From Candidatus Pacearchaeota archaeon (GTDB taxonomy: Archaea; Nanobdellota; Nanobdellia; Pacearchaeales; GW2011-AR1): a stretch of 64,000 bases of DNA. The translations under genes were made by a program, and so were the position numbers. The notes beneath the pieces are model-generated. The model had not been told where the DNA came from. It was given only the letters and a program-made list of their open reading frames with translations, and searched no databases. The stretch lies in contig SICV01000001.1 in the NCBI GenBank assembly GCA_009694725.1, positions 65,219 through 129,218 on the forward strand, written 5' to 3'. Positions 44,634-62,021 of the stretch are shown here, piece by piece (the stretch's first letter is position 1; each line of letters begins with the position of its first letter).

Positions 44634-44831
44634 ATGAATACCTCTATGAATCCCCATAATAAGAAAATATTAGATTTGATACATAGCGAAGAAATAGTCA
44701 CCACTTCTGAAATTGCTGGTAACTTGGACATTTCTTGGAATACTGCAGATAGTTATCTTAAGGATCTTGCTCTCGATAATAAATTACGTCGAATCAAAAA
44801 AGAAGGAGTTACCTTATGGCTCAAAAAATGA
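44634..44831 (+). CDS. small winged-helix DNA-binding protein, first gene of the giant-protein cassette
   Basis: About 65 aa: ...KKILDLIHSEEIVTTSEIAGNLDISWNTADSYLKDLALDNKLRRIKKEGVTLW (HTH plus wing). Its 3' end overlaps the next gene by 16 nt. The start could be 44646. Confidence 0.5.
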   Translation: MNTSMNPHNKKILDLIHSEEIVTTSEIAGNLDISWNTADSYLKDLALDNKLRRIKKEGVTLWLKK

Positions 44832-45574
44832 GAGGACAAGTTATTATTTGGGTGTTTGTAGCATTGGGAGTAACTGCTTTTTTTGTGTTGTTATTCAGTA
44901 TTAAAACAACCCCTCAACAACAAGTCGTTACTGTTGATGATCCGGTAAGTTATATGCAGACCTGTGTGCGTACAGCGATTGTTAATGCACTTGAGGCCCG
45001 TCTCCCTCGAGGAGGCATTGTGGATAGTGGTATTTCAGTTATGTACAATAACATTTCTCGTACCTATTTATGTTATACTCGGGGATTATTTGAACCGTGT
45101 AGTATGCACCATCCTCTTCCCCTTGAAACGCTGACGTTACAACTGACAGAAGAAACTCGCCCGCTTGTAGAAACCTGCTTTGGTGATTTGCAAGAAACGC
45201 TTGAATTGACGGGAAAAGAAACTTTGATGCAATCCTTGACCTATTCTGTATCGTTTGCTCCTGACTCATTATTTGTTACTATTATTCGTCCCTTCTCGAT
45301 ACAAGATCGGGGCATATCTCGAGACTATGAAGACTTTAGTTTTACTATGAAAACTCCAACGTATCAACTCATGGATGTCGCTCGAGAAATTGCAAGTCAA
45401 GAAGCCCAATTTTGTTATTTTGAATACGCGGGTTATATGATTTTGTATCCGACATTTGAAATTGAGAAAAAAACCATCTTTGATGGTATCAAATTGTACA
45501 CGGTACGTGATGTGCCGTCGAATCAAGCACTTACTTTTGCAACACGTGGATGCGTGTTGCCGGCGGGACTCTAA
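44816..45574 (+). CDS. prepilin-like (class III signal) accessory protein A, paralogue of 49619-50392
   Basis: N-terminus MAQKMRGQVIIWVFVALGVTAFFVLLF. Alignable with paralogue B (for example KLYTVRDVPSNQALTFATRGCVLPAG vs RVYRVKNVITQESFQFASRSLVFPPG). Confidence 0.5.
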   Translation: MAQKMRGQVIIWVFVALGVTAFFVLLFSIKTTPQQQVVTVDDPVSYMQTCVRTAIVNALEARLPRGGIVDSGISVMYNNISRTYLCYTRGLFEPCSMHHPLPLETLTLQLTEETRPLVETCFGDLQETLELTGKETLMQSLTYSVSFAPDSLFVTIIRPFSIQDRGISRDYEDFSFTMKTPTYQLMDVAREIASQEAQFCYFEYAGYMILYPTFEIEKKTIFDGIKLYTVRDVPSNQALTFATRGCVLPAGL

Positions 45575-48500
45575 TGAATAGACGACAACCGATCGCATTC
45601 GGGGAACTATTCTTACTGATTAGTATGAGTTTTGCGTTTGCCTGGATTATGCATGAATCCCTTCCTTCGGATACTTCTTCAGTACTTCCTTCTTCTTCAG
45701 CTTCTGTTTCTCAGGTTGGGATGCTTCTTGCACTTCTTGGAAATATGCTGTTTGGAGATACCACGGTAAGCGCTGTTGTTCCCGGTGTGTGGACCTGTCC
45801 GCTTATGAAAGATGGGAGCGTGTGTCAAGAATTGAATAGTGATACGTGCGCGACGTATTGTACCACGTCCTGTATTCCTGCCCGCAAGCAAGATGTACAA
45901 CAATGTAAGCTGGGCACGTGCTTTTCCCCAAACACCGGAGGATGTAGTGCCGGAACTCCTCGAGATACCTGTACGGTTGTAGGTGGGCAATGGTTTGATG
46001 CTCCTCGAGAAAATGTATTGCAATGCCGCTTAGGGTGCTGTCTCACGGGACAACAAGCCTCCTTTACGACGGAACAAGCCTGTCTCCGGCAAGCACAAAC
46101 GTTAGGAACTGAAAAACTATTTCGACCTGAAGTATCCACTGAACTTTCCTGTCTTGCACTTGCCGGGAGCGCAGTCGAGGGCGCCTGTTTATTGGGTACT
46201 GATGATGACGGAAAACGTATCTGTTTATTTGGGACGCGTGAATCCTGTCAGACGCGACAGGGCACCTTCCAGGAAGGATGGTTATGTTCTGCTCCTTCCC
46301 TAAATACGAGTTGTCAGGCTCAACAACGTACGGGTTGTTCAGCGGGAAAAGAAGAAGTGTATTGGTACGATAGTTGTGGGAATCGAGAAAATATTTATGC
46401 GTTGCCTAAAGCGACCAGTTTCAACACTGGGCGCGTGCAACCAAAGGGGGCATCGTGTACGCTCACCCAGCAATTGACGAATGCCGGTACGTGTGGAAAT
46501 TGTAATTATTTACAAGGGAGTATGTGTAAACGCGCTCCAGGTGTTGCAAGCTTAGGAGATTTTGCCTGTCAGGATTTGAAGTGCACTGATCGATGGGGAA
46601 ACAAACACGAACCGGGAGAAAGTTGGTGTGCCTATCAAGGCTCGACGGGTGTTGATCAAAATCGGGGGACTGATACTCCTGGCAGTCGACACTTCCGTGA
46701 GACCTGCGTCAATGGAGAAGTCCAGCAAGATGCGTGCCAAGATTATCGTAATGAACTATGTGTCCAAACCACGACCGGTACGGGTGCTCAACGCTATACC
46801 GCTGCTGCCTGTCGTTTGAATCGATGGGCAGAATGTGTAGCGTATAATAATCCTCAAAAACCGGATGAAAAAATAAAGTGTAGTCAGAATCCCGATTGTC
46901 TGGTGAAACAAGTTTCTGTTGGTCAATTCGCCTTTAACCTCTGTACTCCCAAGTATGCGCCGGGATTTGATTTGACTGAAAATGGACGAGGGGAAGGGTC
47001 TGAAGCACTGTGTTCTATGGGAAGTCAGAAATGTACCAAAGTAATGGTAAAGAAACTAGGGGGATGGAAGTGTCAAGCAAATTGTCAGTGTGATAGCGCA
47101 TTATTCACGGAACAGATGAATAACCTCTGTACGAGTATGGGCGATTGCGGAATGAAAGCTAACTATTTGGGAACCACCTCGGATAGTTATCGGGTGACAG
47201 GTGCTCCTGCACTTGGAGCAAGTTACAAAGCAGGCATGCAACGGTATGCTGATGAACGTTTGTTCAAAGACAAACCTGCACTTGCGGGGAGTCTTGCTGA
47301 ATTCTATGCTCTTACCGGCGTGCCTGCAGGCTTAGGCTTCGGTATGGATCCAACTGATCCTACCTCTGGTACACGCGGTGCTTTGAGCATGCCGATTGGT
47401 ATGGCTGGATTGGCTGTAAGTTATATGGCAATTAGTACCGGGGTCGGCTATAGTGTTGGCTCAACTCTTGGTATCTCTACATATGCAAGTGCAAGTGGAT
47501 TGACTGCTGCTGGAGGTGCGCTCATGGGGGCAACGATTGGATTTGCACTGGTGAGTTTCTTGCTTGATTTCACCGGAGTAGGACGAGGATTACCTGCTGA
47601 ACTTACCTATGGCCTCATGGCTGCAGGGGCTGTCGCAGGAGCGGTGATGGGTATGAGTTATGCTGCTGGAACGGGAGTAACCGGATCATTCTCCGCACTT
47701 GGAGCAAGCGGGTTGTCAACTCTTGCAGGAGCTGCTGCTGCTGCCTTTGTGGTTATTGTAGTTGTCATTATCATTATCGTTGTTATGGCTCTCCTAGGTA
47801 TCGGGAAAGTCAAAAAGATTGAATCTACATTTACCTGTAAGCCTTGGCAAGCTCCGACGGGAAGTAGTGCGTGTGGGACCTGCGGGAGCGATGGATTCCC
47901 GTGTAGTGCGTATGCGTGTTCTGCGCTGGGACAAAATTGTCAGCTCATTAATGAAGCAACGGATGAACCAGAATGTGTTGCGATTAGCAGGGATGATGTG
48001 GTTCCACCGGTGATACAACCGTTGACGGGAGTTATTAGTGTGGGACATCAGTATAGTGCAGTGGGACCTTTGGGATTCAAACTGACGGGACCTGAAGAAT
48101 GTTTAGAACCCTTTAGTCAGCTTATTTTTGGACTTGGCTTGAATGAACCGGGGCAGTGTAAGTATAGCACCTCTCCTTCTGATAGTTTTGCGCAAATGAG
48201 TGCCGACTTTGGATTCAGTTCGTTATTCCGACGCAATCATACGATGATTTTGCCGGTACCGAGTATTGAGGCTTTGGGGTATACTGGCTATCAAACTAAC
48301 TTCACGGCAAGTCAAACGTTGTATGTTCGATGCCAGGATAAAAATGGGAATGTGAACAATGCAGGCTATGCAATCAACTTCTGTGTGCGACGAGGATTAG
48401 ATGTTACCCCTGCCGTTGTAGTAGCTAAAACTCCCGCCTGGGACTACGTCGGCTTCTTGGCAACGCAACAGAATGTAACGCTCTATACCAATGAGCCTGC

Positions 48501-49452
48501 AACCTGTCGCCTGAGTGATCGTGCTCAAGCCTATGATGTGATGACGCAGGAATTAACCTGTTTGAATGATCCAGTTGAAGATACTCCTGCCTTATTTGGC
48601 TGGGCATGTAACACAACGGTAAATCTGCTTGCACGGAATGATTCTACCTTTTATACGCTCTGCAAAGATCAGCCTTGGTTGATTGGAAAAAATGTATCTA
48701 TCTATCGGGTGAATAACACGAATTACACCTTTAATGCCGACGCGGTGAATATGACGTTCTTACAAGGGATAAGTACACGATCAGGGACTCCGCTTGCTCT
48801 TGTCCAGACCATTCCTGAAGCGGTGTTGACGAACATCACGGGAAATGGTACCACGAAACGGATTCAGACTCGAAATCTCATGCAGCAAGCCTATCCGTTT
48901 ACCATTCGGAAGAGTGTTGCACCGTTACGTATTGATGAACTCCAACCATATGGAACGCTCGCGTTTGGCGTTATGCCTGCTTCGGTGTCGGTTATTGCAC
49001 GTACGGGTGGCGGGCTTGATGGAACCGCTACCTGCCGGTATCAGTTTGGCGGGCAATGGATTGATTTCCGAGACACCCTTGGGCTCGTGCATCGCCAGAC
49101 TCTTTCGTTGTTTAACGGAACGCATACGTTCCCGATTCGCTGTGAAGATCAAGCTGGAAACATCGCTGGCAGTAGTGTGACGTTTACCATCCGTGCAGAT
49201 ACAACGATGCCCCTCATAACTCGGGCGTATGGCTCGGGTAGCACGTTGACCGTGGTTACGAATGAACCGGCGACCTGTAAAGCGAGCACACGTGGATGTC
49301 AAGATGCCTGGATCAATGGGACTGCTTTGAGTGGGACTGATCGAGCCCATACGTTCTCCTGGGAACGAAAATTTACCTATTATCTCCAGTGTACGGATCA
49401 GTATTTGAATGGGCCGGGAAGCCAGTGTCAAGCAATAGTGAGGCACCAATGA
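45574..49452 (+). CDS. giant Cys-rich membrane/surface protein, fused form (N Cys-rich module, Gly/Ala hydrophobic module, C beta-sandwich repeat module)
   Basis: About 1290 aa. Start chosen at the TAATG junction with the upstream gene (alternative ATG at 45550). Signal-anchor FGELFLLISMSFAFAW. Module content is described in the findings. Confidence 0.7.
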   Translation: MNRRQPIAFGELFLLISMSFAFAWIMHESLPSDTSSVLPSSSASVSQVGMLLALLGNMLFGDTTVSAVVPGVWTCPLMKDGSVCQELNSDTCATYCTTSCIPARKQDVQQCKLGTCFSPNTGGCSAGTPRDTCTVVGGQWFDAPRENVLQCRLGCCLTGQQASFTTEQACLRQAQTLGTEKLFRPEVSTELSCLALAGSAVEGACLLGTDDDGKRICLFGTRESCQTRQGTFQEGWLCSAPSLNTSCQAQQRTGCSAGKEEVYWYDSCGNRENIYALPKATSFNTGRVQPKGASCTLTQQLTNAGTCGNCNYLQGSMCKRAPGVASLGDFACQDLKCTDRWGNKHEPGESWCAYQGSTGVDQNRGTDTPGSRHFRETCVNGEVQQDACQDYRNELCVQTTTGTGAQRYTAAACRLNRWAECVAYNNPQKPDEKIKCSQNPDCLVKQVSVGQFAFNLCTPKYAPGFDLTENGRGEGSEALCSMGSQKCTKVMVKKLGGWKCQANCQCDSALFTEQMNNLCTSMGDCGMKANYLGTTSDSYRVTGAPALGASYKAGMQRYADERLFKDKPALAGSLAEFYALTGVPAGLGFGMDPTDPTSGTRGALSMPIGMAGLAVSYMAISTGVGYSVGSTLGISTYASASGLTAAGGALMGATIGFALVSFLLDFTGVGRGLPAELTYGLMAAGAVAGAVMGMSYAAGTGVTGSFSALGASGLSTLAGAAAAAFVVIVVVIIIIVVMALLGIGKVKKIESTFTCKPWQAPTGSSACGTCGSDGFPCSAYACSALGQNCQLINEATDEPECVAISRDDVVPPVIQPLTGVISVGHQYSAVGPLGFKLTGPEECLEPFSQLIFGLGLNEPGQCKYSTSPSDSFAQMSADFGFSSLFRRNHTMILPVPSIEALGYTGYQTNFTASQTLYVRCQDKNGNVNNAGYAINFCVRRGLDVTPAVVVAKTPAWDYVGFLATQQNVTLYTNEPATCRLSDRAQAYDVMTQELTCLNDPVEDTPALFGWACNTTVNLLARNDSTFYTLCKDQPWLIGKNVSIYRVNNTNYTFNADAVNMTFLQGISTRSGTPLALVQTIPEAVLTNITGNGTTKRIQTRNLMQQAYPFTIRKSVAPLRIDELQPYGTLAFGVMPASVSVIARTGGGLDGTATCRYQFGGQWIDFRDTLGLVHRQTLSLFNGTHTFPIRCEDQAGNIAGSSVTFTIRADTTMPLITRAYGSGSTLTVVTNEPATCKASTRGCQDAWINGTALSGTDRAHTFSWERKFTYYLQCTDQYLNGPGSQCQAIVRHQ

Positions 49453-49618
49453 GTAATCTGAGAAACAATCGCATTGAACGTAGGTATCTCAGGTATTCCT
49501 TTGTATCTTTTCTAGCTGAAGCCCCCTTGTTCAATGTATTTCAAGTGAATAAGCCTATCTACTCTAGGAAAGTACCTGCATGAAAACCATTATAAACATC
49601 CGACGTGATGAGGAGAGT

Positions 49619-50392
49619 ATGGAGAGAGGGATACGTACACGAGGACAAGTTACCTTTTTTGTACTAGTTGCAGTTGTGTTGGTAGGTGTTATTATTGCGC
49701 TCATTGCGATTCCTCGGTTACGCGGACCGAGTGTTGATGCAGTACAAGATCCCTCTGCCTTTTTACGCGCCTGTATCCAACCTACGTTAGAGGCTCGGTT
49801 GGCAACGCTGAGTGAGCAGGGAGGTTATCTCACTCCTGAAGGGTTTATTGAATATAATGGGACTAAAGTAAAATATCTCTGCCATGCAAGCGAAGATTAT
49901 GCAACATGCACTGTGCAACAACCGCTGATTAAAGAACATGTGGAAGAAGAACTAACCAATGCATTACAGGGAACAGCACGACAATGTGTGCAAGATTTGA
50001 AAGATGCGTTCCAGAGTGCTGGCTATAGCGTGGGAGGGAACTTTGAACGGTTCACGTTTTCATTTATCCCGGGAAACATGGTTGCGGTTATTGAAGCTCC
50101 GCTGACGTTAGAGAAACAAGGACGACGAACGTACACGCAATTCCAACTCACGTTCCCGAGTGAATATTATGATGTACTCTATCTGGTCACCAGCATTATT
50201 GAATATGAATCCCAAGTGGGCAATTCTGAAACATCTTTATATGTCCAGTATTACCCCGATATTAGTATGGATAAGATAACCTTGGGAGATGGCACTCGTG
50301 TGTATCGAGTGAAGAATGTAATCACTCAAGAATCCTTCCAATTCGCCTCTCGCAGTTTGGTGTTCCCACCAGGATATGGGTTTGAGCGATGA
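49619..50392 (+). CDS. prepilin-like (class III signal) accessory protein B
   Basis: N-terminus MERGIRTRGQVTFFVLVAVVLVGVIIALIAI (alternative upstream ATG at 49580). Paralogue of 44816-45574. Confidence 0.5.
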   Translation: MERGIRTRGQVTFFVLVAVVLVGVIIALIAIPRLRGPSVDAVQDPSAFLRACIQPTLEARLATLSEQGGYLTPEGFIEYNGTKVKYLCHASEDYATCTVQQPLIKEHVEEELTNALQGTARQCVQDLKDAFQSAGYSVGGNFERFTFSFIPGNMVAVIEAPLTLEKQGRRTYTQFQLTFPSEYYDVLYLVTSIIEYESQVGNSETSLYVQYYPDISMDKITLGDGTRVYRVKNVITQESFQFASRSLVFPPGYGFER

Positions 50393-51858
50393 AGTTCCTG
50401 TTTGCTTTGTTCATAAGCGTCGTTCTTCTTGGACTGGTGGGTGCAGCTGAACAAACCGTGTGTTGTGAAAAAACAACCTCTGGCCTCTATTGTCAGCAAG
50501 TGCAGCCAACACAGTGCGCTTCGGGAAGCAAGCAAGCTCCGACCTCCTGTGAGTCAACGAGTTTCTGTAAACCGGGCGTATGTTATGGTACTGCTGAAGG
50601 GACGTGTATGGAAAATACACCCCAAGTTGCCTGTAACGCACAAAATGCCAGTTGGTCTGCAACGTTCCCTGCCCAATGTACCTTAGGGTGTTGTGTGTTA
50701 GGAGATCAAGCGGCATTTGTCTCCTTGCCTCGGTGTAAACGCCTTGCAGGTTTCTTTGGTATCCCTGTTACGTATAATCGCGGGGTGACCAATGAGGTGC
50801 AATGTGTCTTGAGTGTACAAAATCAAGATAAAGGAGCATGTGTGTATGAACAAGAATTTGAAAAGACCTGTCGATTTACAACACGTGCATTATGTTCTTC
50901 GGGTGCAAATAATACAGGACAAGGTACTTTCTATAAAGACAAGCTCTGCACCGCTCCTGAACTTGCCACGAATTGTGCCAAGACACAGAAAACAGCCTGT
51001 GTCGATGGGAAAGATGAAGTGTATTTTGTGGATAGTTGTGGGAATGCGGCAAATGTATATGATGCGGGCAAAGCACAAGACGTTGAATACTGGACAAACA
51101 TAAAAACTCCTGAACAAAGTTGTAATCCTACTGGTGCAAATGCGGGGAGTCGCACGTGTGGCAATTGTGAATATTTGTTAGGAAGCATCTGTCGGAAAGC
51201 GAGTAAAGCAGATACGCCTGCGATGGGCGAGAATATTTGTACGAATTTGAATTGTGCTACTACCAGTAATGGGAAAGCGTATAAACATGGGGAAAGTTGG
51301 TGTGTGAATACGGATGCGGGTAAAACGGCAGTGAGTAAGAATAGTGTGGGCAGTCGCTTCTACAAGCATCTCTGTATTAACGGAGAAGAAAAAGTAGAAG
51401 GGTGTGCCGATTATCGCCAGGAAGAATGTATCCAAGATGTGATTAAAACAACCGCGGGAGAATTCTCTCAGGCAGCCTGCCGTGTGAACCGGTGGCAAGA
51501 TTGTACGACCCAGACTGATAAGGACGCTTGCCAGAATCGTGATCGACGAGACTGTGCCTGGAAACCAGGTGTTGCAGCTAATCCTGATGCGTGCGTTCCG
51601 TTGAATGCTCCTGGCTTGCAATTCTGGCAAGGAGAACAAACCAAAGAAATTTGCGGGAAAGCATCAGCAACCTGTACAGTCACCTTTGAGAAGGGCGCCT
51701 TTGGGGGAGAAGAATGTAAGCAGAACTGTGAATGCCTCACCGGACAATGGCTCCAACGGAGAAATGAGTTATGTAATGCGCTGGGCGATTGTGGTCCCAA
51801 TATTAATTGGTTTAATCAGAAGGGTTACACTGACGGGTATAAAGTAGTTGGACCGTAA
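50389..51858 (+). CDS. secreted Cys-rich protein, stand-alone paralogue of the N-module of the giant protein
   Basis: Sec signal MKFLFALFISVVLLGLVGAAEQ. Collinear conserved Cys blocks with 45574-49452 (DSCGN, TCGNCxYLxGSxC, GESWC, CRxNRW, LGDCG). ATGA overlap with accessory B. Confidence 0.7.
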   Translation: MKFLFALFISVVLLGLVGAAEQTVCCEKTTSGLYCQQVQPTQCASGSKQAPTSCESTSFCKPGVCYGTAEGTCMENTPQVACNAQNASWSATFPAQCTLGCCVLGDQAAFVSLPRCKRLAGFFGIPVTYNRGVTNEVQCVLSVQNQDKGACVYEQEFEKTCRFTTRALCSSGANNTGQGTFYKDKLCTAPELATNCAKTQKTACVDGKDEVYFVDSCGNAANVYDAGKAQDVEYWTNIKTPEQSCNPTGANAGSRTCGNCEYLLGSICRKASKADTPAMGENICTNLNCATTSNGKAYKHGESWCVNTDAGKTAVSKNSVGSRFYKHLCINGEEKVEGCADYRQEECIQDVIKTTAGEFSQAACRVNRWQDCTTQTDKDACQNRDRRDCAWKPGVAANPDACVPLNAPGLQFWQGEQTKEICGKASATCTVTFEKGAFGGEECKQNCECLTGQWLQRRNELCNALGDCGPNINWFNQKGYTDGYKVVGP

Positions 51859-51912
51859 GTAAGTTATTTGTATCGCCTGTATCTTTTTAATCCCTTAACG
51901 CATCTACCCTCT

Positions 51913-52584
51913 ATGCGTTCTCATTCTCTCGCATTGGTCGGTGCAGGACTTGTAGGACTTGCTTCATTGAGCGAGGGTTCACTTTCTCGCCCTTCATTTC
52001 TTGAACCTCTTTCCCGAGCAATGATGCCTGCTCTTTCTGGCCCGCTCGCCTATTGTGCTGGATGTGATTCAATCCATGGTCCAGAAGGGGAGGGAAGTAC
52101 TCGCTATGAACTTGTTACCGGATTTGCTGACTTGACTTCGGTTCAATCCCTCTTTACTGATATGCAAGATGAAGTAAAGAATCTTGAAACGATTGCGGTA
52201 ACAGGGGTCACGGTACGACAGCGTGAGAGTGATGATAGCGTGAAATTGCATCCAGAAGATCCCGTGTATCCTGGACAGACACCTGGTGACTCCTATAGGG
52301 GTACTTCGTTTATCTTGTTTTATATTGACCTTGCTAACCATCCGTCGACTTTTACGTTACAGATTGCACGTGACGGGACAAACATGTACTCGCAAGACTT
52401 TGATCTTGCGACTTCTCCCGCTCGTAGGGGTTTTCTTCTGTTCAGCCCTCAAGAACTTGCACCTCGCGAGTATCGATTACATGGTCCTGCCAAGTATACG
52501 ATTGAAACAATAGTGGATGACGATGAAGATCCGGGTTCTTCTCGCACTGAGCAAACCATGGAATTCTTTATTGAACATAAATAG
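51913..52584 (+). CDS. secreted hypothetical protein
   Basis: Signal-like MRSHSLALVGAGLVGLASLS. TATA-like box ends 22 nt before the ATG. The ORF track starts at TTG 51868. Confidence 0.4.
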   Translation: MRSHSLALVGAGLVGLASLSEGSLSRPSFLEPLSRAMMPALSGPLAYCAGCDSIHGPEGEGSTRYELVTGFADLTSVQSLFTDMQDEVKNLETIAVTGVTVRQRESDDSVKLHPEDPVYPGQTPGDSYRGTSFILFYIDLANHPSTFTLQIARDGTNMYSQDFDLATSPARRGFLLFSPQELAPREYRLHGPAKYTIETIVDDDEDPGSSRTEQTMEFFIEHK

Positions 52585-52592
52585 GGAGAAGA

Positions 52593-53807
52593 TTATTTTT
52601 CTTCCCCTAATAATTTTAAATTTTCAGCAAGTGTTTCTGGCCTATTGTTTTTTTCGCCTCTCCGAATATTTCTTATCACGAAGTTTTTTAGAAGAGCATA
52701 TCTTAAAAGATAAAGAACGTATTCCTTTTCTTCTTCTTTGATCGGAAATTTAGAATGCACATTATAACCTTGAGTAATCGCCTTAAAACTACTTTTAAGG
52801 TATAGGGGCGGTGCCATATTTCTGCCAAATAATAAGGGGGACTCAAAATCAACAACTCTCCTTGAAAACCTAAGCAACTCTAAATCTATGAATTTTAACC
52901 CTGTAGATGTCAAAATTACATTAGACTGATTTAAATCTCCATGAATGTAAGCTTCATCTAAAAAATCACGCCTTACATCAAAACCTGCACTCATTATTCT
53001 TTTTGTTTCTGGCAGAAAAGAATCGTGGCCGTTAACTGCAAGGTCGATATTAATTGCGATCAAATTGCTTGCACTTGAATGGCTGCATTCAGATAAAAAA
53101 GTATTTTGTAATCCTCTCCTTTCTATCGCGCCACTTAATTCTCGATGCATTCTTGCAATTTTTCCTCCAAGTTCAAAATAATAAGATAAGCTTCTTTCCT
53201 TAATTGGTTCACCTATAACATATTCTTCTAAACCATAAAAACCATCACTTAAACAAACGAATCTTTCTCCTGATGTCGTTTTTTTGCCTGTTGGGAAAAA
53301 AGAAGGCAGTTCTTGAACTACTTCAAATAACGCCTTTGCTCTTGCTGTTTTTGTTCCTAAATTTTTAAGAACAAATTCCCCTTCCTTACTAAGAACATGA
53401 AACAATCCTTCTTTTCTAATGCTCCCTTTAATAGGGGTTAAGTGTATATTAGTTAAACCATAAGATTGAGCCAAAATATCTTCAAGCATCGAGGTGTTTT
53501 TTTTCTCTAAATTTTCTCTTGCAAAAACTTGAGAAGGTGTATGATATATTATTTTTTTGCCTTTTAGTAAACTTATTCCTAATTCTGACATGCTCTGACT
53601 TTCAATAGGAAAAACTTGAGTGGTACCTTTATAAAAAATAGTGAACGAATTAGTCGAGTTAGAAACCGTCGTTTTTTCTTTATCTGAAATAACCACGTTA
53701 TTCATGCATCTTCCTGAAAAAGTAATTTCTCCTGTAACATATCCAAAATTATTGCCTTCTCGATAAAATTTTATTTCTTCTGGGAAAAAAATTGTTGAAT
53801 TGAGCAT
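52593..53807 (-). CDS. protein-kinase-like fold phosphotransferase (APH/choline-kinase family)
   Basis: Catalytic segment YIHGDLNQSNVILT...KFIDLE (HGDxxxxN...IDxE) is typical of aminoglycoside/small-molecule kinases. AT-rich gene. Confidence 0.6.
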   Translation of the reverse strand: MLNSTIFFPEEIKFYREGNNFGYVTGEITFSGRCMNNVVISDKEKTTVSNSTNSFTIFYKGTTQVFPIESQSMSELGISLLKGKKIIYHTPSQVFARENLEKKNTSMLEDILAQSYGLTNIHLTPIKGSIRKEGLFHVLSKEGEFVLKNLGTKTARAKALFEVVQELPSFFPTGKKTTSGERFVCLSDGFYGLEEYVIGEPIKERSLSYYFELGGKIARMHRELSGAIERRGLQNTFLSECSHSSASNLIAINIDLAVNGHDSFLPETKRIMSAGFDVRRDFLDEAYIHGDLNQSNVILTSTGLKFIDLELLRFSRRVVDFESPLLFGRNMAPPLYLKSSFKAITQGYNVHSKFPIKEEEKEYVLYLLRYALLKNFVIRNIRRGEKNNRPETLAENLKLLGEEK

Positions 53808-53906
53808 AAAAATGAGTTTGTCCCCATTATTTAAATATGTCTATTAACATTAATTATTCTTCGTTCTTTCAGCTTATTTTAAATACTATAAAACAATCTC
53901 TAAAGT

Positions 53907-54458
53907 ATGGATATTACTTTTATTCGTCATGCAGAGAAAGAACTAGGTGAAGGAGATTTATCTCTCTCTGAAAATGGGAAGAAACAAGCAAAAAACCTTG
54001 CTAAACGTTTAAAGGGGGAACATTTTGATGAATTTTACTGTAGTGAACTATTGCGTTCACGTGAAACTTCTCAATTAGTTTCAGAAACTATTAATCTTGA
54101 CCCGATAATAGTGCCTTCACTTAATGAATTTGAACCCTCTCTTTTAAAAATAGATCAAGAAATTTGGGGTGAAAAAGAAACTAAACAATATCAAGCACTA
54201 TGTTCTTTTCTTGCTAACTTTAATAAACGAGGAGATGAAAAAAAGCGCGTCCTAATTATTGCACATGGAAATACTAATAGACTTATACTTACAATATTGC
54301 TCGAATTAAACTTAAAAAATATCATTAGATTTAGATTGCTTGAAACAGGAATAAGTGAAGTTTATTGGATGCCGAAATTTAAAAATTGGAGAATGAAATA
54401 TTGGAACGATGTTTCTCATCAACCTAAGGAACTAGTTGAAGGCATCAACAAATATTAA
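53907..54458 (+). CDS. histidine phosphatase family protein (phosphoglycerate mutase-like)
   Basis: ITFIRHAEKE (RHG-type motif), SELLRSRET and IIAHGNTNR (second catalytic His). Confidence 0.75.
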   Translation: MDITFIRHAEKELGEGDLSLSENGKKQAKNLAKRLKGEHFDEFYCSELLRSRETSQLVSETINLDPIIVPSLNEFEPSLLKIDQEIWGEKETKQYQALCSFLANFNKRGDEKKRVLIIAHGNTNRLILTILLELNLKNIIRFRLLETGISEVYWMPKFKNWRMKYWNDVSHQPKELVEGINKY

Positions 54459-55273
54459 GAAATCGCAAGATTATAATAATTGACAAAGGAATTGAAAATT
54501 TTCTTGCTTGAAGTTAAGGTTGTTTCCTTATTTTCTTTAAGTTTAGATACTTTTTTCTGTATATCTTTAACATTTTTTGAGAAGCAAATAAACCCAATAT
54601 ATTTAGAAGCTTCAAAAATTCTTGAAAGAATTTTCCTTTTCCTCGTTTCTGACGATAGCTCATTTCTTATATCTTTCAAGTAATATCGATTATAAGCATT
54701 AAACAATAAATCATAGATTTGAGCAGGGCAATTTTTTAAAAAGATTATTTTATTCTCTTTAAAATCTACCCCCTTAATTGGCAAATGTCTCCAAGGCAAA
54801 GAAATGGAAGTTCGATTAATAATCGCCCTCTGAAAGCATTTATCGAATGGAGCAAATTTATCTATAATTCCTTTTGAGAGATTTTCTTCTCCTTTAATGG
54901 AAACTCCAACAGAATAGGCCTTATTTTTTATTTTTATTTCTTTTTTTATGTTTTGAAAGGTATTACCTTTAATAATTACTAGAAAATCGTAATCTTCATT
55001 ATTTTCTGAATGAAGTCCTGATCCAAAGACTGAGATGCTTTTAATTTTAGTACCTCCTCTTTCCTTTAAGAGTTGCTTTTCAATTATGTTTGCTAAATTG
55101 TTAAAAATTTTCCACCTTTTCTCTAAAATTTTATTCTTCTTGCCATTAATTTGATAATACAAATTTCTCTTAAATAGTCTCTTTCTTTCTACTTTTTTTC
55201 TAAAATTAATTTTATTTTTTTCAAATAGATCTAATGGAAAACCTACATCAAATTGAACAGGTTTAATTTTCAT
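54455..55273 (-). CDS. nucleotidyltransferase-domain protein (Pol-beta superfamily)
   Basis: SVFGSGLHSENNEDYDFLVII matches the GS...DxD minimal nucleotidyltransferase signature. Very AT-rich, Lys/Asn/Ile-rich protein. Confidence 0.55.
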   Translation of the reverse strand: MKIKPVQFDVGFPLDLFEKNKINFRKKVERKRLFKRNLYYQINGKKNKILEKRWKIFNNLANIIEKQLLKERGGTKIKSISVFGSGLHSENNEDYDFLVIIKGNTFQNIKKEIKIKNKAYSVGVSIKGEENLSKGIIDKFAPFDKCFQRAIINRTSISLPWRHLPIKGVDFKENKIIFLKNCPAQIYDLLFNAYNRYYLKDIRNELSSETRKRKILSRIFEASKYIGFICFSKNVKDIQKKVSKLKENKETTLTSSKKIFNSFVNYYNLAIS

Positions 55274-55396
55274 GTAACATAGAGCATAAACCTATTTTTA
55301 TTTATTTCTATTAATCTTAATAAAAATCCTCTTTTTTAACTACTTTCAAGTTACGGCTTACCGAAAGATATAAAAGGACATTCACCATGGAGGATT

Positions 55397-55969
55397 GTGC
55401 ACCAAAGTCTTGAAAAACGGTTGCGAGGTGGTCTTCTAGCTGTTAGTATCGGTGTTGGTTCTTTGTTGGGAAGTGGGTGTGCAACGAATAATCCTGCTCT
55501 CAATGCGTTTATGAATTATGGTGTTGCTCCGATTCTTGCCGCTGATGCGGGACGAAGTCAACAAACAGTGATTGTGAATGCTCCCGGTGCTTCTGCTCAA
55601 GACCCTCAGGACTACCTTCCCAAAGATTATGCTCGGGGACCGTGGGCGCTCTACGCTGCAGGTTATTGTGATGAAAATACGGTACGAAGTGCAAAGGACA
55701 TTCGTAACACCTTCACGGAAGGGGAAACCTTCTATGTATTGGGGAAAGGTCCCGGCACACGTTATCTTCGTCTTGAAGTGAGTGATGAGCAGGGAAAGCA
55801 AGTGGCAGCAAAAGAAATTGATATTCGGTCTGGACCCACCAACATCGCACGGGATGGTGGCTTTCTTCGTATTCTCGGAGGGACAATTCCCCCAGGTGCA
55901 TACACTATTAAAATGTTTGACGGTCGTGGATTAAATTCACAAGGCAGCTTCAAAGTCATCTCTCGCTAA
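55397..55969 (+). CDS. putative lipoprotein / small secreted beta-rich protein
   Basis: GTG start 21 nt after AGATATAAAAGG. Signal with a lipobox-like LLGSGC. Confidence 0.45.
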   Translation: MHQSLEKRLRGGLLAVSIGVGSLLGSGCATNNPALNAFMNYGVAPILAADAGRSQQTVIVNAPGASAQDPQDYLPKDYARGPWALYAAGYCDENTVRSAKDIRNTFTEGETFYVLGKGPGTRYLRLEVSDEQGKQVAAKEIDIRSGPTNIARDGGFLRILGGTIPPGAYTIKMFDGRGLNSQGSFKVISR

Positions 55970-56028
55970 TTTTTTCTCCCGCTTTTCCGTCGCAGAACGT
56001 TTATAAATCTCTGAACGTATGGATCCTC

Positions 56029-58212
56029 ATGTTCAAAAAGAGGGACGCACATATTCTATTAACATCTTTCTTTCAGATGTATCTTATCCTTTCCCTTACC
56101 ATTATTTCTTCTGCATTAGTATCTTCTATTGTTCCCCCGCCAGTTACCAATACTCCTGCAGGGGGATATATGGAATTATTAAGCAGAACAGCAGGAGGAC
56201 AAACATTTGCGAATACTGTTCCGGGACAGGTTTTTAGTGCGGGTAAAGCAATTCCTCCAGGTACGATTTTACAACCGGGCAGTGCAATTCAAGGAGGAAC
56301 ACTTGGGGGGGATAGTGTTGGCTATACTTTAGCTGGAGAACCCGTTGGTCCAAATGTCTATGCTGCTGAAGGCCAAGGAGCAACTGCGGTTTCAACGTCA
56401 ACGACTGCATCTGCCACAGGGGCACTGGTACAAGGATTATTTTGGGGAGTAGCCCTTTACGCAGGTATCAAAATGCTGGGGGGAATGTTGGGATTAGGTA
56501 AAGGTACGACGGATGCATTGGCAAATGCTGCGCTTGTTGGAGGAATTGCAGGGGGGGCTACAAAGGCAGCCATTTTATATTTTAGACCTGAAACCACTGC
56601 AGCTTCACAAGTCAATTTCTTAAGTGGGTCGTTCACGCCAGGACAACTGGGCTTTGGTGCGGGTGTAGTGATTGCAGTCATTATCTTCTTAGTCAAGTAT
56701 AAAGATACTAAGACGAAAGTGGTATCGTATCAATGCCTGCCATGGGAACCTGCGCTCGGAGGGGCGAATTGTGGGGAATGTAATAAGAATTCTTTCCAGC
56801 CGTGTTCTGAGTATCGGTGCAAGTCACTGGGACAGGCATGTGAGTTGGTAAATCCGGGGACGTCTGAGGAGAAATGTATCTGGAAGAGCAAGCAAGATGT
56901 AACGTCTCCGACCATTACTCCCTGGGAAGATGCGTTACGTCCTACTGGATTGCGGTATGTGCCTTTGGAAACGCGTCCGAATGCTCGAGGAACGCGTATT
57001 GTGAGTGCGAATGGAGATTGTCTTGATGCGTTTACACCCTTGGAATTTGGGATTACGACGAATGAACAAGCCCAGTGTAAGATTGATTTTAGAAATGGCA
57101 ATTTGAGCACCATGCAATTCTTCTTTGGGGGCAGTAATTATTTTGTGACCAACCATACGCAACGGATGAAGTTGCCTTCGGGGACTGCGGATGGACTCAC
57201 CTTACAAAACGATGGGACGTTTGATTTGTATGTGAAGTGTCAGGATGCGAATGGGAATACCAATGAGGATGTCTATGTGATTGAATATTGTGTGAAAAAG
57301 GGTCCGGACACTACTCCTCCCGTGATTGTCGATACGTCCATTACCTCGGGTAGTCCCGTACGATTTGGAGCAAATGCAGTACCTCTTGAAGTGTACACGC
57401 AGGAACCTGCGCAGTGTAAGTGGAGTCGGACCAGTAAGCCGTATGATGACATGGAAAATCGCTTTACGTGCGCCTCCTCACCTACCCAATTGAATGGAGA
57501 CTTGAGTTACACGTGTGCGGGGAATATGACTGGTGTGTTGGATCGTGCGGAAAATCAATTCTATCTCCGATGCCAAGATTATGCTAACAATACGATGGCT
57601 CAAAGCTATCCGTTTGTACTGAAGGGAAGTCAACCGTTAACGATTCTCGAAACGAGTCCAAATGGGACATTGTATGGGGCAACGACTACCGTGCCGGTGA
57701 CCTTGGGCGTGAAAACGGATGCGGGAGCTGAAGCAGGGAAGGCCTCCTGTTATTATAGCGCACCGACGACGTTAGGTGAGCCTATTAAGTTCTTCACCAC
57801 CGAGAGCTTTACCCATAGCCAACAAGTAGATGTCACGGCAGGATTCCATCAGTACTCATTACTCTGCGTTGATGCAGGAGGGAATACTGTTAATCAGACG
57901 CTTAACTTCACGATGGTAATTGACCAGCAAGCCCCTCGTGTTACGCGTGTCTATCGTGAAGAAGCATTGAAAGTGGTGACAAATGAAGCAGCTGAGTGTA
58001 CCTATTCATTACAAGGATGTACTTTTGGGATTGATGATGGCCTCAAGATGCAATACATTCGACCTGATGTCCAGAATCAACACTTTGTGGATTGGAAGTC
58101 ATCCCTGACCTATTATGTGAAGTGCGTTGATAAGTATGGGAATCAACCTGATCCCGGGGAATGTTCAGTCGTGGTAAGTCCGAAGCAGTTTGTGAATGCG
58201 ACGAATATCTAG
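56029..58212 (+). CDS. membrane protein, stand-alone paralogue of the hydrophobic and C-modules of the giant protein
   Basis: Own signal-anchor (ILLTSFFQMYLILSLTIISSAL). Gly/Ala-rich hydrophobic region. Then YQCLPWEPALGGANCGECNKNSFQPCSEYRCKSLGQACELVN aligns with FTCKPWQAPTGSSACGTCGSDGFPCSAYACSALGQNCQLIN, followed by four repeat units. Confidence 0.7.
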   Translation: MFKKRDAHILLTSFFQMYLILSLTIISSALVSSIVPPPVTNTPAGGYMELLSRTAGGQTFANTVPGQVFSAGKAIPPGTILQPGSAIQGGTLGGDSVGYTLAGEPVGPNVYAAEGQGATAVSTSTTASATGALVQGLFWGVALYAGIKMLGGMLGLGKGTTDALANAALVGGIAGGATKAAILYFRPETTAASQVNFLSGSFTPGQLGFGAGVVIAVIIFLVKYKDTKTKVVSYQCLPWEPALGGANCGECNKNSFQPCSEYRCKSLGQACELVNPGTSEEKCIWKSKQDVTSPTITPWEDALRPTGLRYVPLETRPNARGTRIVSANGDCLDAFTPLEFGITTNEQAQCKIDFRNGNLSTMQFFFGGSNYFVTNHTQRMKLPSGTADGLTLQNDGTFDLYVKCQDANGNTNEDVYVIEYCVKKGPDTTPPVIVDTSITSGSPVRFGANAVPLEVYTQEPAQCKWSRTSKPYDDMENRFTCASSPTQLNGDLSYTCAGNMTGVLDRAENQFYLRCQDYANNTMAQSYPFVLKGSQPLTILETSPNGTLYGATTTVPVTLGVKTDAGAEAGKASCYYSAPTTLGEPIKFFTTESFTHSQQVDVTAGFHQYSLLCVDAGGNTVNQTLNFTMVIDQQAPRVTRVYREEALKVVTNEAAECTYSLQGCTFGIDDGLKMQYIRPDVQNQHFVDWKSSLTYYVKCVDKYGNQPDPGECSVVVSPKQFVNATNI

Positions 58213-59891: not shown

Positions 59892-62021
59892 TTACTTTTT
59901 CCCTTCTGTATCTAATTTCTTTAAAGCAGCAATAATTGTTTCAAAATGTTCCTTTCTCCCTACTCCGAGTTCTTTTATCCCTATTTCTATATCTTCTCGA
60001 CTAATATTTTTAGCAAATTCTTTTTTCTTTAAAGCTTTCTCAACTGAATCTGCATCCATTTCATCAAACTTACTGGGCCTTACTTTTGACATAGCAGTCA
60101 CTAAACCGGATAATTCATCAACGGCAAACAAACACTTTGCTAATTTAGTATCTCTTTCAATACCTGTAAACGTGGAATAATGTGCGAGAATTGCATGAAT
60201 TATTTCATGCGGATATCCTTCTTTGATAAGGATTTCTGATCCTTTGAGTGTATGTTCTTCAGGATATTTTTCATAATCAAAGTCATGTAAGATTCCTGAA
60301 ATTTCCCATAAGTTTTCATCTTCACCATACTTTTGAGCATATGCTTTCATTGAAGCCCCAACTGCTAAGCAGTGATTAACAAGACTTTCCGAAGAAACAT
60401 GGGCCTTGAGTAATACAATTGCTTCGTTTCGGGTTATTTTTCTCTTTCCTGATTTTGCTTGATTCATTAACTGTGTTGCTTGAGGATTTTTCCCTAAAAT
60501 ATTCCCATTTGGTTTTGGTTCTTTCTTTGTGTCTACAACTTCAGGCTTCATAAACGGAAAGAGGATGACATCACGGATAGAAGGGCTATTGGTCAGGAGC
60601 ATCGTCAGACGATCAATGCCCATCCCGTACCCTGCAGTTGGAGGGAGGCCAAGTTTGAGGGCATCAATGAAGTCGGTGTCCATCGGCATGGCATCTTTCG
60701 AGCCTTCCTTGAGAAGGGCTGCTTGCTCGTGCAAACGGGCTTCTTGATCAAGGGGGTCGTTCAGCTCATCATATGACTTCATAATTTCCGCACCATCGAT
60801 GATCAATTGAACTGAATTGATTTTACTTGGATCTTTTTCGTTGCGTTTTGCTAAGGCAATCATTTCAACTGGGTAGTGGGTGAGAAAGGTTGGCTGTACG
60901 ATGCTTGGACGCACGACGCGCTTGTAGAGTTCGTCGAGTAAGGCACCGTAGTGTGTGCAGGTACGAATATCAACATCACGTAATCCTTTTTCTTGTATTT
61001 CTGCTTTGAGTTTTTCATACGTGTTGACCTGGTTGATATCAATGTCTGCTTCTTTGAGCATCAAATCACGGAACGTAACCCGCTTGAACGGAAGTGTGAG
61101 ATTTATTTTTTTACCTTGATATTCAAGTTCATCTCCAAGCGAGAGTGCTTTCTTCAGACGAGTAAATAACTCTTCTGTAAACTGCATATGGTATTCATAC
61201 GTTTTATAGGCTGCATAGTACTCCAACATCGTAAATTCAGGATTATGCTGACGATCAATACCTTCATTTCTAAAATTCTTACATACTGTAAAGACTCGTT
61301 CGAATCCTCCTACGACTACTCGCTTGAGATAGAGTTCGGGAGAGATGGAAAGATAGAGCGGAATGTCTAACGCATTGAGATGTGTTTTGAACGGTGCTGC
61401 TGATGCCCCCCCATAGATGGATTGCAAAGCAGGTGTTTCAACTTCGAGAAATCCTTCTTCCTGGAGATAGGAACGAAGTGTGGTGAGAATCGTTGCACGT
61501 GTTTCAAACGTTGTTCGTACATCAGGACTCATCACTAAATCAATATAGCGCTTGCGATAGCGTTCTTCTTTATCTTCTAAGCCGTGCCATTTGTCAGGAA
61601 GGGCAGCAAGTGATTTCGTCAGGAGGGTGAGATCATGCACTTCAACGGATAATTCTCCTCGTTTGGTACGAAAAATAGTTCCCTGGACGTTGATAATATC
61701 TCCTGCATCGATATAGGATTTACAAAGGGCACTTACTTTTCCAGGCGTATTGGGTTCTTGGAGGACAATTTGAATCGTTCCTGTTCCGTCTCGTACCGTG
61801 CCGAATGCTATTTTGCCGAGGTCACGGAAGGACATGAGTCTTCCCACAATTGCCACTTTATTGTTCGTTGTGTGTTCGGGAAGTAACGCTTTGTGCTCTT
61901 TTTGGAGCTGGGCAGTCGTATGTGAACGAGTGCTTTCTTGAGGATAAGGATTAATTCCTGCTTTTTTGAGCGCATCAAGCTTCTTGAGCCGTTCTTTGTA
62001 AAATTCATCTTGACGTGACAT
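59892..62021 (-). CDS. lysS: class II lysyl-tRNA synthetase fused to a C-terminal HD-domain hydrolase
   Basis: OB-fold anticodon-binding domain plus class II motifs (FRNEG, GMGIDRL) to about aa 493, then a linker. aa 528-709 carry HD signature residues (NHCLAV ... LHDFDY). Confidence 0.85.
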   Translation of the reverse strand: MSRQDEFYKERLKKLDALKKAGINPYPQESTRSHTTAQLQKEHKALLPEHTTNNKVAIVGRLMSFRDLGKIAFGTVRDGTGTIQIVLQEPNTPGKVSALCKSYIDAGDIINVQGTIFRTKRGELSVEVHDLTLLTKSLAALPDKWHGLEDKEERYRKRYIDLVMSPDVRTTFETRATILTTLRSYLQEEGFLEVETPALQSIYGGASAAPFKTHLNALDIPLYLSISPELYLKRVVVGGFERVFTVCKNFRNEGIDRQHNPEFTMLEYYAAYKTYEYHMQFTEELFTRLKKALSLGDELEYQGKKINLTLPFKRVTFRDLMLKEADIDINQVNTYEKLKAEIQEKGLRDVDIRTCTHYGALLDELYKRVVRPSIVQPTFLTHYPVEMIALAKRNEKDPSKINSVQLIIDGAEIMKSYDELNDPLDQEARLHEQAALLKEGSKDAMPMDTDFIDALKLGLPPTAGYGMGIDRLTMLLTNSPSIRDVILFPFMKPEVVDTKKEPKPNGNILGKNPQATQLMNQAKSGKRKITRNEAIVLLKAHVSSESLVNHCLAVGASMKAYAQKYGEDENLWEISGILHDFDYEKYPEEHTLKGSEILIKEGYPHEIIHAILAHYSTFTGIERDTKLAKCLFAVDELSGLVTAMSKVRPSKFDEMDADSVEKALKKKEFAKNISREDIEIGIKELGVGRKEHFETIIAALKKLDTEGKK

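Follow-up and report, generated by a model that had tools for sequence, protein, structure and literature searches.

The 64,000-nucleotide (nt) window considered here, positions 65,219–129,218 (forward strand) of contig SICV01000001.1 from a Candidatus Pacearchaeota archaeon (GenBank assembly GCA_009694725.1), carries the gene for a giant protein and, downstream of it, two open reading frames (ORFs) that resemble the front and the back of that protein and lie several genes apart. This locus raises the question of whether the two ORFs are the halves of a second giant gene and, if so, whether they are working genes or the debris of a broken one. The upstream ORF is referred to below as the N-half (N2) and the downstream ORF as the C-half (C2). 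The explanation favored here, to which a probability of about 0.72 is assigned, is that they represent an old, fixed fission of the second paralogue in a two-copy envelope-protein module, in which the ectodomain was excised and the halves would reassemble. The genome that holds the locus (G000) is 636 kb in size and 86% complete, with the window forming part of its contig 1. Its closest public relatives are metagenome-assembled genomes labelled Candidatus Pacearchaeota, Woesearchaeota or Nanoarchaeota, the nearest being VGKT01000001.1 (G007).

The first part of the question is answered by homology. The fused giant (copy 1) is built in the order leader, N-module with 43 cysteines, Gly/Ala-rich hydrophobic module and C-module with 21 cysteines. 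In protein alignments, the N-half matches fused residues 83–551 (33% identity, E 7e-69) and the C-half matches residues 740–1297 (29% identity, E 1e-63), while a six-frame search carries the C-half match back to residue 607, within the hydrophobic part. The cysteine counts are equal between the copies, with 43 in each N-module and 21 in each C-module. Two separate proteins that match non-overlapping parts of a fused one (83–551 and 607–1297) are what defines a Rosetta-stone pair. In addition, fused forms of copy 2 exist in two relatives (1368 amino acids (aa) in G018 and 1385 aa in G024) and are nearer to the N-half and the C-half than to copy 1, and this makes the two ORFs a true fusion/fission pair. 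A preliminary description of the sequence had already recognized both as intact ORFs homologous to parts of the giant, and its coordinates are right. It had also placed the break exactly at a module boundary. Here, the end of the N-half (...GYKVVGP) does align opposite ...SYRVTG of the fused protein; however, fused residues 553–606 have a counterpart in neither half and C-half residues 35–126 are of low complexity, so that no single residue marks an exact junction of the halves.

The split extends well beyond this genome. A fused copy, followed by an N-only frame of 490–600 aa and then by a C-only frame of 700–810 aa, is found in 40 relatives across the genus and the family, and fused copy-1 orthologues of about 1170–1400 aa are present in at least 60. 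When the 80 best genomic matches to the N-half alignment are taken as a sample of the nearest species, copy 2 is split in 79 and fused in one (G024). The C-half lies downstream on the same strand in 54 of these 80 loci, at distances of 1–7367 nt (median 1251 nt), and 8 of 11 genomes without a nearby C-half have a C-only gene elsewhere. In one genome (G009; L033 1834–3363), a C-type gene about 210 kb from the N-half is called at 509 aa and starts past the membrane helices; by its sequence it could be either a truncated variant or a mis-called start.

Wider sampling gives the same picture. Of 151 genomes sampled evenly across the order, 97 belong to family f1; about 90 of these are split, with the copy-2-type N-module in a 450–810-aa frame, and six, which are fused cases additional to G018 and G024, have it in a frame of 1172–1388 aa. 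All matches in families f5 and f9 of this sample are fused, and fused orthologues persist in sister families as well as in a small number of genera. When 1.84 billion representatives were searched without a profile, 1442 related cluster representatives came up. Among the best 150 of the 1442, length is bimodal, with about 80 N-only and about 67 fused, and the short forms end 13–135 residues past a conserved GDCG motif, most of them 23–86 residues past it.

Both halves are under constraint. The N-half and the C-half have ratios of non-synonymous to synonymous substitution rates (dN/dS), calculated for G000 and G007 orthologues, of 0.038 and 0.074, respectively, as compared to 0.086 for the fused copy and 0.08–0.11 for flanking housekeeping genes. 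The marks of a pseudogene are missing from this pair: the ORFs are intact, the ratios are low and the gap holds no remnant. These sequence comparisons support the earlier proposal that the halves are two functional genes.

The gap between the halves measures 4170 nt and contains five ORFs, in agreement with the 4.2 kb and five genes first reported for it. The distance itself is secondary and lineage-specific, because the halves of relatives are adjacent (1, 1, 15 and 76 nt) or, most often, one gene apart and because the content of the insert differs in G007. The block at 52593–55273 has a GC content of 24–35% versus 45–50% in its flanks and shares only the histidine phosphatase with G007 (79% aa identity). 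The corresponding gap in G007 (L024 9600–14800) holds a different low-GC block (27–36%) of five or six minus-strand genes, at least two of which look glycosyltransferase-like by eye and one of which is a histidine-phosphatase fusion. From these sequence differences, the low-GC genes are lineage-specific insertions. Hallmarks of a mobile element were sought around 52593–55273: the GC content is deviant and the G007 content is different, the flanks have no meaningful repeats and no tRNA, and no ORF of the insert is integrase-like. As a separate observation, the N2–C2 gap seems to be a place where accessory genes land repeatedly.

A recent interruption by foreign DNA in this genome, leaving one or both halves to decay, would produce a low-GC block between the halves and could also account for the ORF that continues in frame past the N-half after a single TAA (51856–52584, where read-through would add 238 residues). 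This ORF, s238, is known only in the present genome and in G007, where its homologue is 60% identical and out of frame with the N-half. The in-frame arrangement is therefore treated as a coincidence and s238 as an independent secreted-protein gene. Remnants of a missing linker within 51859–56028, which the preliminary description had named as a sign against its own proposal, were looked for and none were found. As about 90 other species have the split, most of them lacking this insert, and dN/dS is 0.04–0.07, the comparative data refute a recent interruption and reduce its probability to nearly nothing.

The direction of change was read from trees. Separate N-module and C-module phylogenies are congruent and contain a copy-2 clade (support 95 and 100) that comprises all of the split forms together with the fused proteins of G018 and G024 and two from G032. 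This clade is nested among fused copy-1 clades. As the split forms lie within fused clades and the outgroups are fused, fission is the derived state. Monophyly of the split forms is not rejected by the approximately unbiased test (p 0.245 and 0.273), so that one fission event suffices, with more being possible.

Further insight into the event comes from the leaders. In relatives, the C-half N-termini share a helix, roughly (Q/E)I(F/L)LLIxMSFAFxFIL, which is followed by ...VSA; in the window the hydrophobic N-terminal helix is at aa 7–34/40. A hidden Markov model (HMM) built from 49 C-halves, over their first 60 residues, matches the N-terminus of all 60 fused copy-1 proteins (60/60), with up to 37 bits and 34.8 bits for the giant of this window, and the N-terminus of fused copy-2 proteins with 15–24 bits. 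It matches no internal segment of any fused protein, and N2 leaders score about zero. With a second model, limited to the h-region, the median score of fused N-termini is 16.2 bits, whereas internal segments and N-half leaders have medians of -3.7 and -2.6, respectively. Judged by these scores, the leader that the C-half carries across relatives is the N-terminal leader of the family itself, and that of the N-half is an ordinary Sec signal peptide. The C-half had been credited at first with a signal-anchor of its own: the hydrophobic helix is indeed present, but it is not a new invention, since in relatives it is the family leader. As this leader is kept on the C-half, the ectodomain would have been excised from between the leader and the membrane part, instead of the protein having been divided by one cut.

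Two other origins of the C2 leader were considered and set aside. Derivation from an internal helix of the fused protein was rejected, as the scores of internal segments are negative. As a cause of the likeness, continuing gene conversion within a genome, between C2 and copy 1, is unsupported (34% versus 32% identity, permutation p 0.09). Separately, in G024, fused copy 1 and fused copy 2 (L029 1706–5689 and 6681–10838) have nearly identical leaders (LEILLLIVSVFAFSFLV...) and the remainder of the two proteins is only about 30% identical, which hints at local recombination or conversion in that genome.

The leaders also bear on whether the change could have run the other way, with the split form being ancestral and the fused copy-2 genes (G018, G024 and others) having arisen later, when neighboring N2 and C2 genes joined up again. 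Where the two genes are 1 nt apart, as in L062 and L123, they could be fused by the loss of a stop; the fused copy-2 proteins form an unresolved polytomy with split ones, and G024 has an internal hydrophobic segment at the junction that is faintly leader-like. A re-fused protein should carry the C2 leader inside it; however, no fused protein gives a positive internal match (in G024, -1.9 bits internally versus 20.5 at the N-terminus) and no relic of a basic n-region is seen at the junction. The N-termini of fused copy-2 proteins carry the family leader, unlike N2, and the sister families and copy 1 are all fused. Re-fusion is accordingly regarded as quite improbable, and fission of a fused copy 2 is retained as the direction of change.

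The C-half has what looks like its own promoter. The TATA-box-like element TTTATAAA at 56001–56008 ends 21 nt before the C-half ATG at 56029, as had been noted, and in G007 TTTATATA stands at the identical 21-nt offset before the C-half start (L024 15192–15221). Because this geometry is conserved in the nearest relative, a separate promoter is supported at the sequence level, and the element predicts a leaderless transcript. A T-run follows the stop of the gene upstream of the C-half. The same spacing is seen at that upstream gene, where ATATAAAA ends 21 nt before the GTG start of 55397–55969. In all, an A/T-rich, TATA-like octamer ends exactly 21 nt before the start in three genes (window 55369–55397 and 56001–56029; L024 15192–15221), one of which starts with GTG, and this spacing fits leaderless transcripts in the lineage.

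The gene just upstream of the C-half has counterparts in relatives. When the ORFs in the gaps were clustered, one recurrent family emerged, with 44 members in 38 loci, lengths of 200–290 aa and a lipobox-like ...SGC. The HMM of this family matches window ORF 55397–55969 at E 5e-8, and in 30 of the 44 cases in relatives the lipoprotein-like gene ends 6–84 nt before C2. The window protein has the motif expected of an archaeal lipoprotein (LLGSGC), with C28 invariant and G27 nearly so in 25 homologues; its lipidation is a prediction.

The N-half is predicted to fold well, with an AlphaFold 2 (AF2) mean predicted local distance difference test score (pLDDT) of 82.8, and its fold has no match in the PDB or BFVD by Foldseek, nor does its sequence match the sequence profiles of the PDB. 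In relatives, the tails past the GDC motif are 17–95 aa long and never hydrophobic, and for this reason long N2 proteins were rejected as fission intermediates that retain membrane remnants. The partner of the N-half is pil2, which is paralogous to pil1 (25% identity, E 4e-29), the gene that stands upstream of fused copy 1 here and in relatives. The hydrophobic segment of pil1 is at aa 4–33. An alignment of 37 pil sequences has the consensus KRGQ, with K20 and G22 nearly invariant and Q23 invariant, and the genome encodes, away from the locus, an A24 prepilin peptidase (PF01478, above cut-off) and two T2SSE ATPases. By its sequence, pil2 has a class III (prepilin-type) signal peptide with predicted cleavage. 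Weak matches to archaeal flagellins are limited to the N-terminal helix of pil and fall below threshold (E about 0.6).

For the C-half, the AF2 model (pLDDT 79.4) shows a leader helix at 7–34, a disordered stretch at 35–126, helices at 129–153, 158–185 and 204–223, a Cys-rich linker and four beta-sandwich domains. The top Foldseek matches are tandem immunoglobulin/fibronectin type III (Ig/FN3) ectodomain rods, including GhpA, and each C-module domain contains two or four invariant cysteines. The only library matches of the C-half are sub-threshold and Ig-like: Big_13 (PF19077) scores 19.5 bits in the C-half and 17.4 in the fused copy, below the gathering cut-off of 27, and many relatives carry precomputed PF19077 matches. 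In Pfam, NCBIfam and the PDB sequence profiles, no curated cut-off or E ≤ 0.001 was reached for the N-half, the C-half, pil, s238 or s190. Relatives of the giant-protein family are all annotated as hypothetical proteins, and full-text literature searches turned up no description of the family or its split.

Taken together, the proposed history would run as follows. The ancestral protein would have begun with a leader helix, followed by the 43-Cys ectodomain, then by three membrane helices and finally by an Ig-like rod of four domains. Within a single family-level lineage, the ectodomain would have been removed to become a separate, anchorless, secreted N-half with an ordinary Sec signal, and the remainder would have become the C-half, which kept the family leader and has a disordered loop in place of the ectodomain. 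We infer that the likeliest route was tandem duplication followed by complementary deletions. Both genes remain under strong purifying selection; the N-half has stayed coupled to pil2, its pilin-signal partner, and the C-half has its own predicted promoter and, usually, the lipoprotein-like gene just upstream. The secreted head may then re-attach non-covalently to extracellular parts of the membrane-embedded C-half, possibly with help from the lipoprotein, and thereby rebuild from two chains what the fused paralogue provides in one. Later, the interval between the halves served as a landing site for unrelated low-GC genes, giving rise to the 4.2-kb separation seen here.

Several observations weigh against this account. 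The sample of 80 loci is biased towards the split lineage because the loci were picked by similarity to the N-half. No duplication intermediate has been directly identified, save for two tandem fused copies in G032. The C-half leader of the present genome has diverged (6 bits on the full HMM and below zero on the h-region model), so that the leader argument rests on relatives. The lipoprotein family was found in only 5 of 10 split genomes searched genome-wide and in 0 of 5 fused-only genomes; as this family evolves fast, absences are weak evidence. Lastly, the charge bias (n-region +2.9, after the last helix +1.7) puts the C-module in the cytoplasm and the N-module outside, and the helix parity of the C-half agrees with a cytoplasmic C-module.

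This last point touches the proposed contact between the halves. If the modules were on opposite sides of the membrane, direct contact between them would be ruled out and the only docking sites left to the head would be the lipoprotein or a loop or hairpin in the base. An outside location of the C-module is favored by its Ig-like fold, by its pairs of invariant cysteines and by two sequons that are conserved among 50 C-halves, in 92% (N375-H-T, window 57151–57159) and 94% (N545-x-T, 57661–57669) of them. With charge and helix parity on one side and cysteines, fold and sequons on the other, the evidence on the sidedness of the C-module is divided. In the second sequon (C-half 545–547), the middle residue is variable, as expected under selected glycosylation, and the overall sequon density is not raised.

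The topology is also relevant to the possibility that the halves function independently, the N-half being a free secreted or pilus-associated factor that works with pil2 and the C-half a separate membrane protein, with no complex being formed. Large modules on opposite sides of the membrane, as charge may indicate, would be in keeping with this, as would separate promoters, an N-half without an anchor and at least 8 genomes in which the halves lack linkage or fall on other contigs. Against it, both halves are co-retained wherever assemblies allow, the N- and C-module phylogenies agree, and in the fused paralogue and the fused orthologues the modules stay on a single chain. Independence is considered unlikely. 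A complex of the N-half and C-half, as first suggested from the split itself, is plausible from the sequence data. A more elaborate version is considered improbable: it pictures a modular device in which a free, disulfide-knotted 43-Cys head would be held by non-covalent contacts and a lipoprotein tether, with the gap being a hot spot for surface-modifying genes (glycosyltransferases, kinase/phosphatase), the whole making up a variable apparatus, of host contact or of the envelope, specific to Pacearchaeota-type DPANN archaea.

The pair can be compared to known systems. Comparative genomics has established concepts for both Rosetta-stone (fusion/fission) pairs and the fission of prokaryotic genes through duplication with complementary degeneration. 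The present case is similar in that two genes are homologous to non-overlapping parts of a composite, of which the same genome has a paralogue and relatives have orthologues, and in that the split forms nest within fused ones. It differs in that the downstream piece keeps the N-terminal leader of the composite, an internal ectodomain having been removed in place of a head/tail cut, and in that the split form dominates its lineage and usually has a lipoprotein-like gene alongside. The arrangement also recalls operons of a minor pilin and a large adhesin in type IV filaments (PilY1) and archaeal proteins with class III signal peptides: a KRGQ prepilin-type protein is translationally coupled to a very large, extracellular-type protein, and prepilin peptidase and assembly ATPases are encoded in this genome. 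In contrast to PilY1-type systems, membrane helices are part of the large proteins themselves, similarity of these proteins to PilY1 or any pilus protein was not detected, and the locus has no pilus genes.

Among surface layers, SlaA and SlaB of Sulfolobales form an outer canopy and a membrane-anchored stalk, respectively. Here too, a soluble exported head and a membrane-anchored, beta-sandwich-rich protein come from separate, usually neighboring genes, known in this case from genes and models; in contrast, no sequence or fold similarity was detected, and a single-chain paralogue coexists with the pair. With Big_13 (PF19077), Y_Y_Y (PF07495) and GhpA-type Ig/FN3 rods, the C-module shares a row of four beta-sandwich domains in its model. 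It is set apart by its PF19077 score, which is below the cut-off, by two or four invariant cysteines in each domain and by a rod that comes after, not before, the membrane helices.

Gene fission is a known process and the event itself is ordinary. What it offers is a guide to a large, uncharacterized family, conserved at one locus in hundreds of host-dependent archaea: the split marks natural domain boundaries in a group of 1442 cluster representatives that has no Pfam or NCBIfam model and whose head fold is unsolved. The retained leader indicates that the 43-Cys module sits as an insert, with the leader on one side and the membrane domain on the other, which constrains topology models and the design of expression constructs. 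In addition, a genome in which single-chain and two-chain forms of the module coexist provides a natural experiment on head–base binding, which for that reason is directly testable with soluble pieces.

The features of the locus are collected in Table 1. The gene order is cobA(-), a small winged helix-turn-helix gene, pil1, the fused giant, pil2, the N-half, five genes, the C-half and hjc(-).

Table 1. Features of the split-gene locus, in window coordinates
Feature	Position	Strand	Description
pil1	44816-45574	+	~250-260-aa class III (prepilin-type) signal protein (RGQ and hydrophobic helix); partner of fused copy 1
Fused giant, copy 1	45550-49452	+	1300 aa; likely start 45574
pil2	49580-50392	+	Class III-signal protein; stop overlaps N-half start (ATGA)
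N-half (N2)	50389-51858	+	489 aa; Sec-type signal peptide and 43-Cys N-module, without membrane anchor
s238, small secreted protein	51913-52584	+	Probable start MRSHS...; homologue in G007
Kinase-like gene	52593-53807	-	Weak CotS/Bud32-like matches
Histidine phosphatase	53907-54458	+	PF00300, E 6e-25
Unknown gene	54455-55273	-	Third gene of the low-GC block 52593-55273
Lipoprotein-like gene	55397-55969	+	LLGSGC lipobox-like motif; GTG start
TATA-box-like element of C-half	56001-56008	+	TTTATAAA; from sequence
C-half (C2)	56029-58212	+	727 aa; leader helix, disordered stretch, three helices, Cys-rich linker, four beta-sandwich domains

Further downstream, the window encodes a class II lysyl-tRNA synthetase (LysRS; 59892–62021, minus strand) with a C-terminal HD-type extension, which several relatives lack (frames of about 500 aa). 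A LysRS species tree for polarizing fused versus split states was dropped, as identities cut across the taxonomy. They reach 66% and 63% to other genera or families versus 47–55% within the genus, and this pattern suggests transfer, or gain or loss of the domain.

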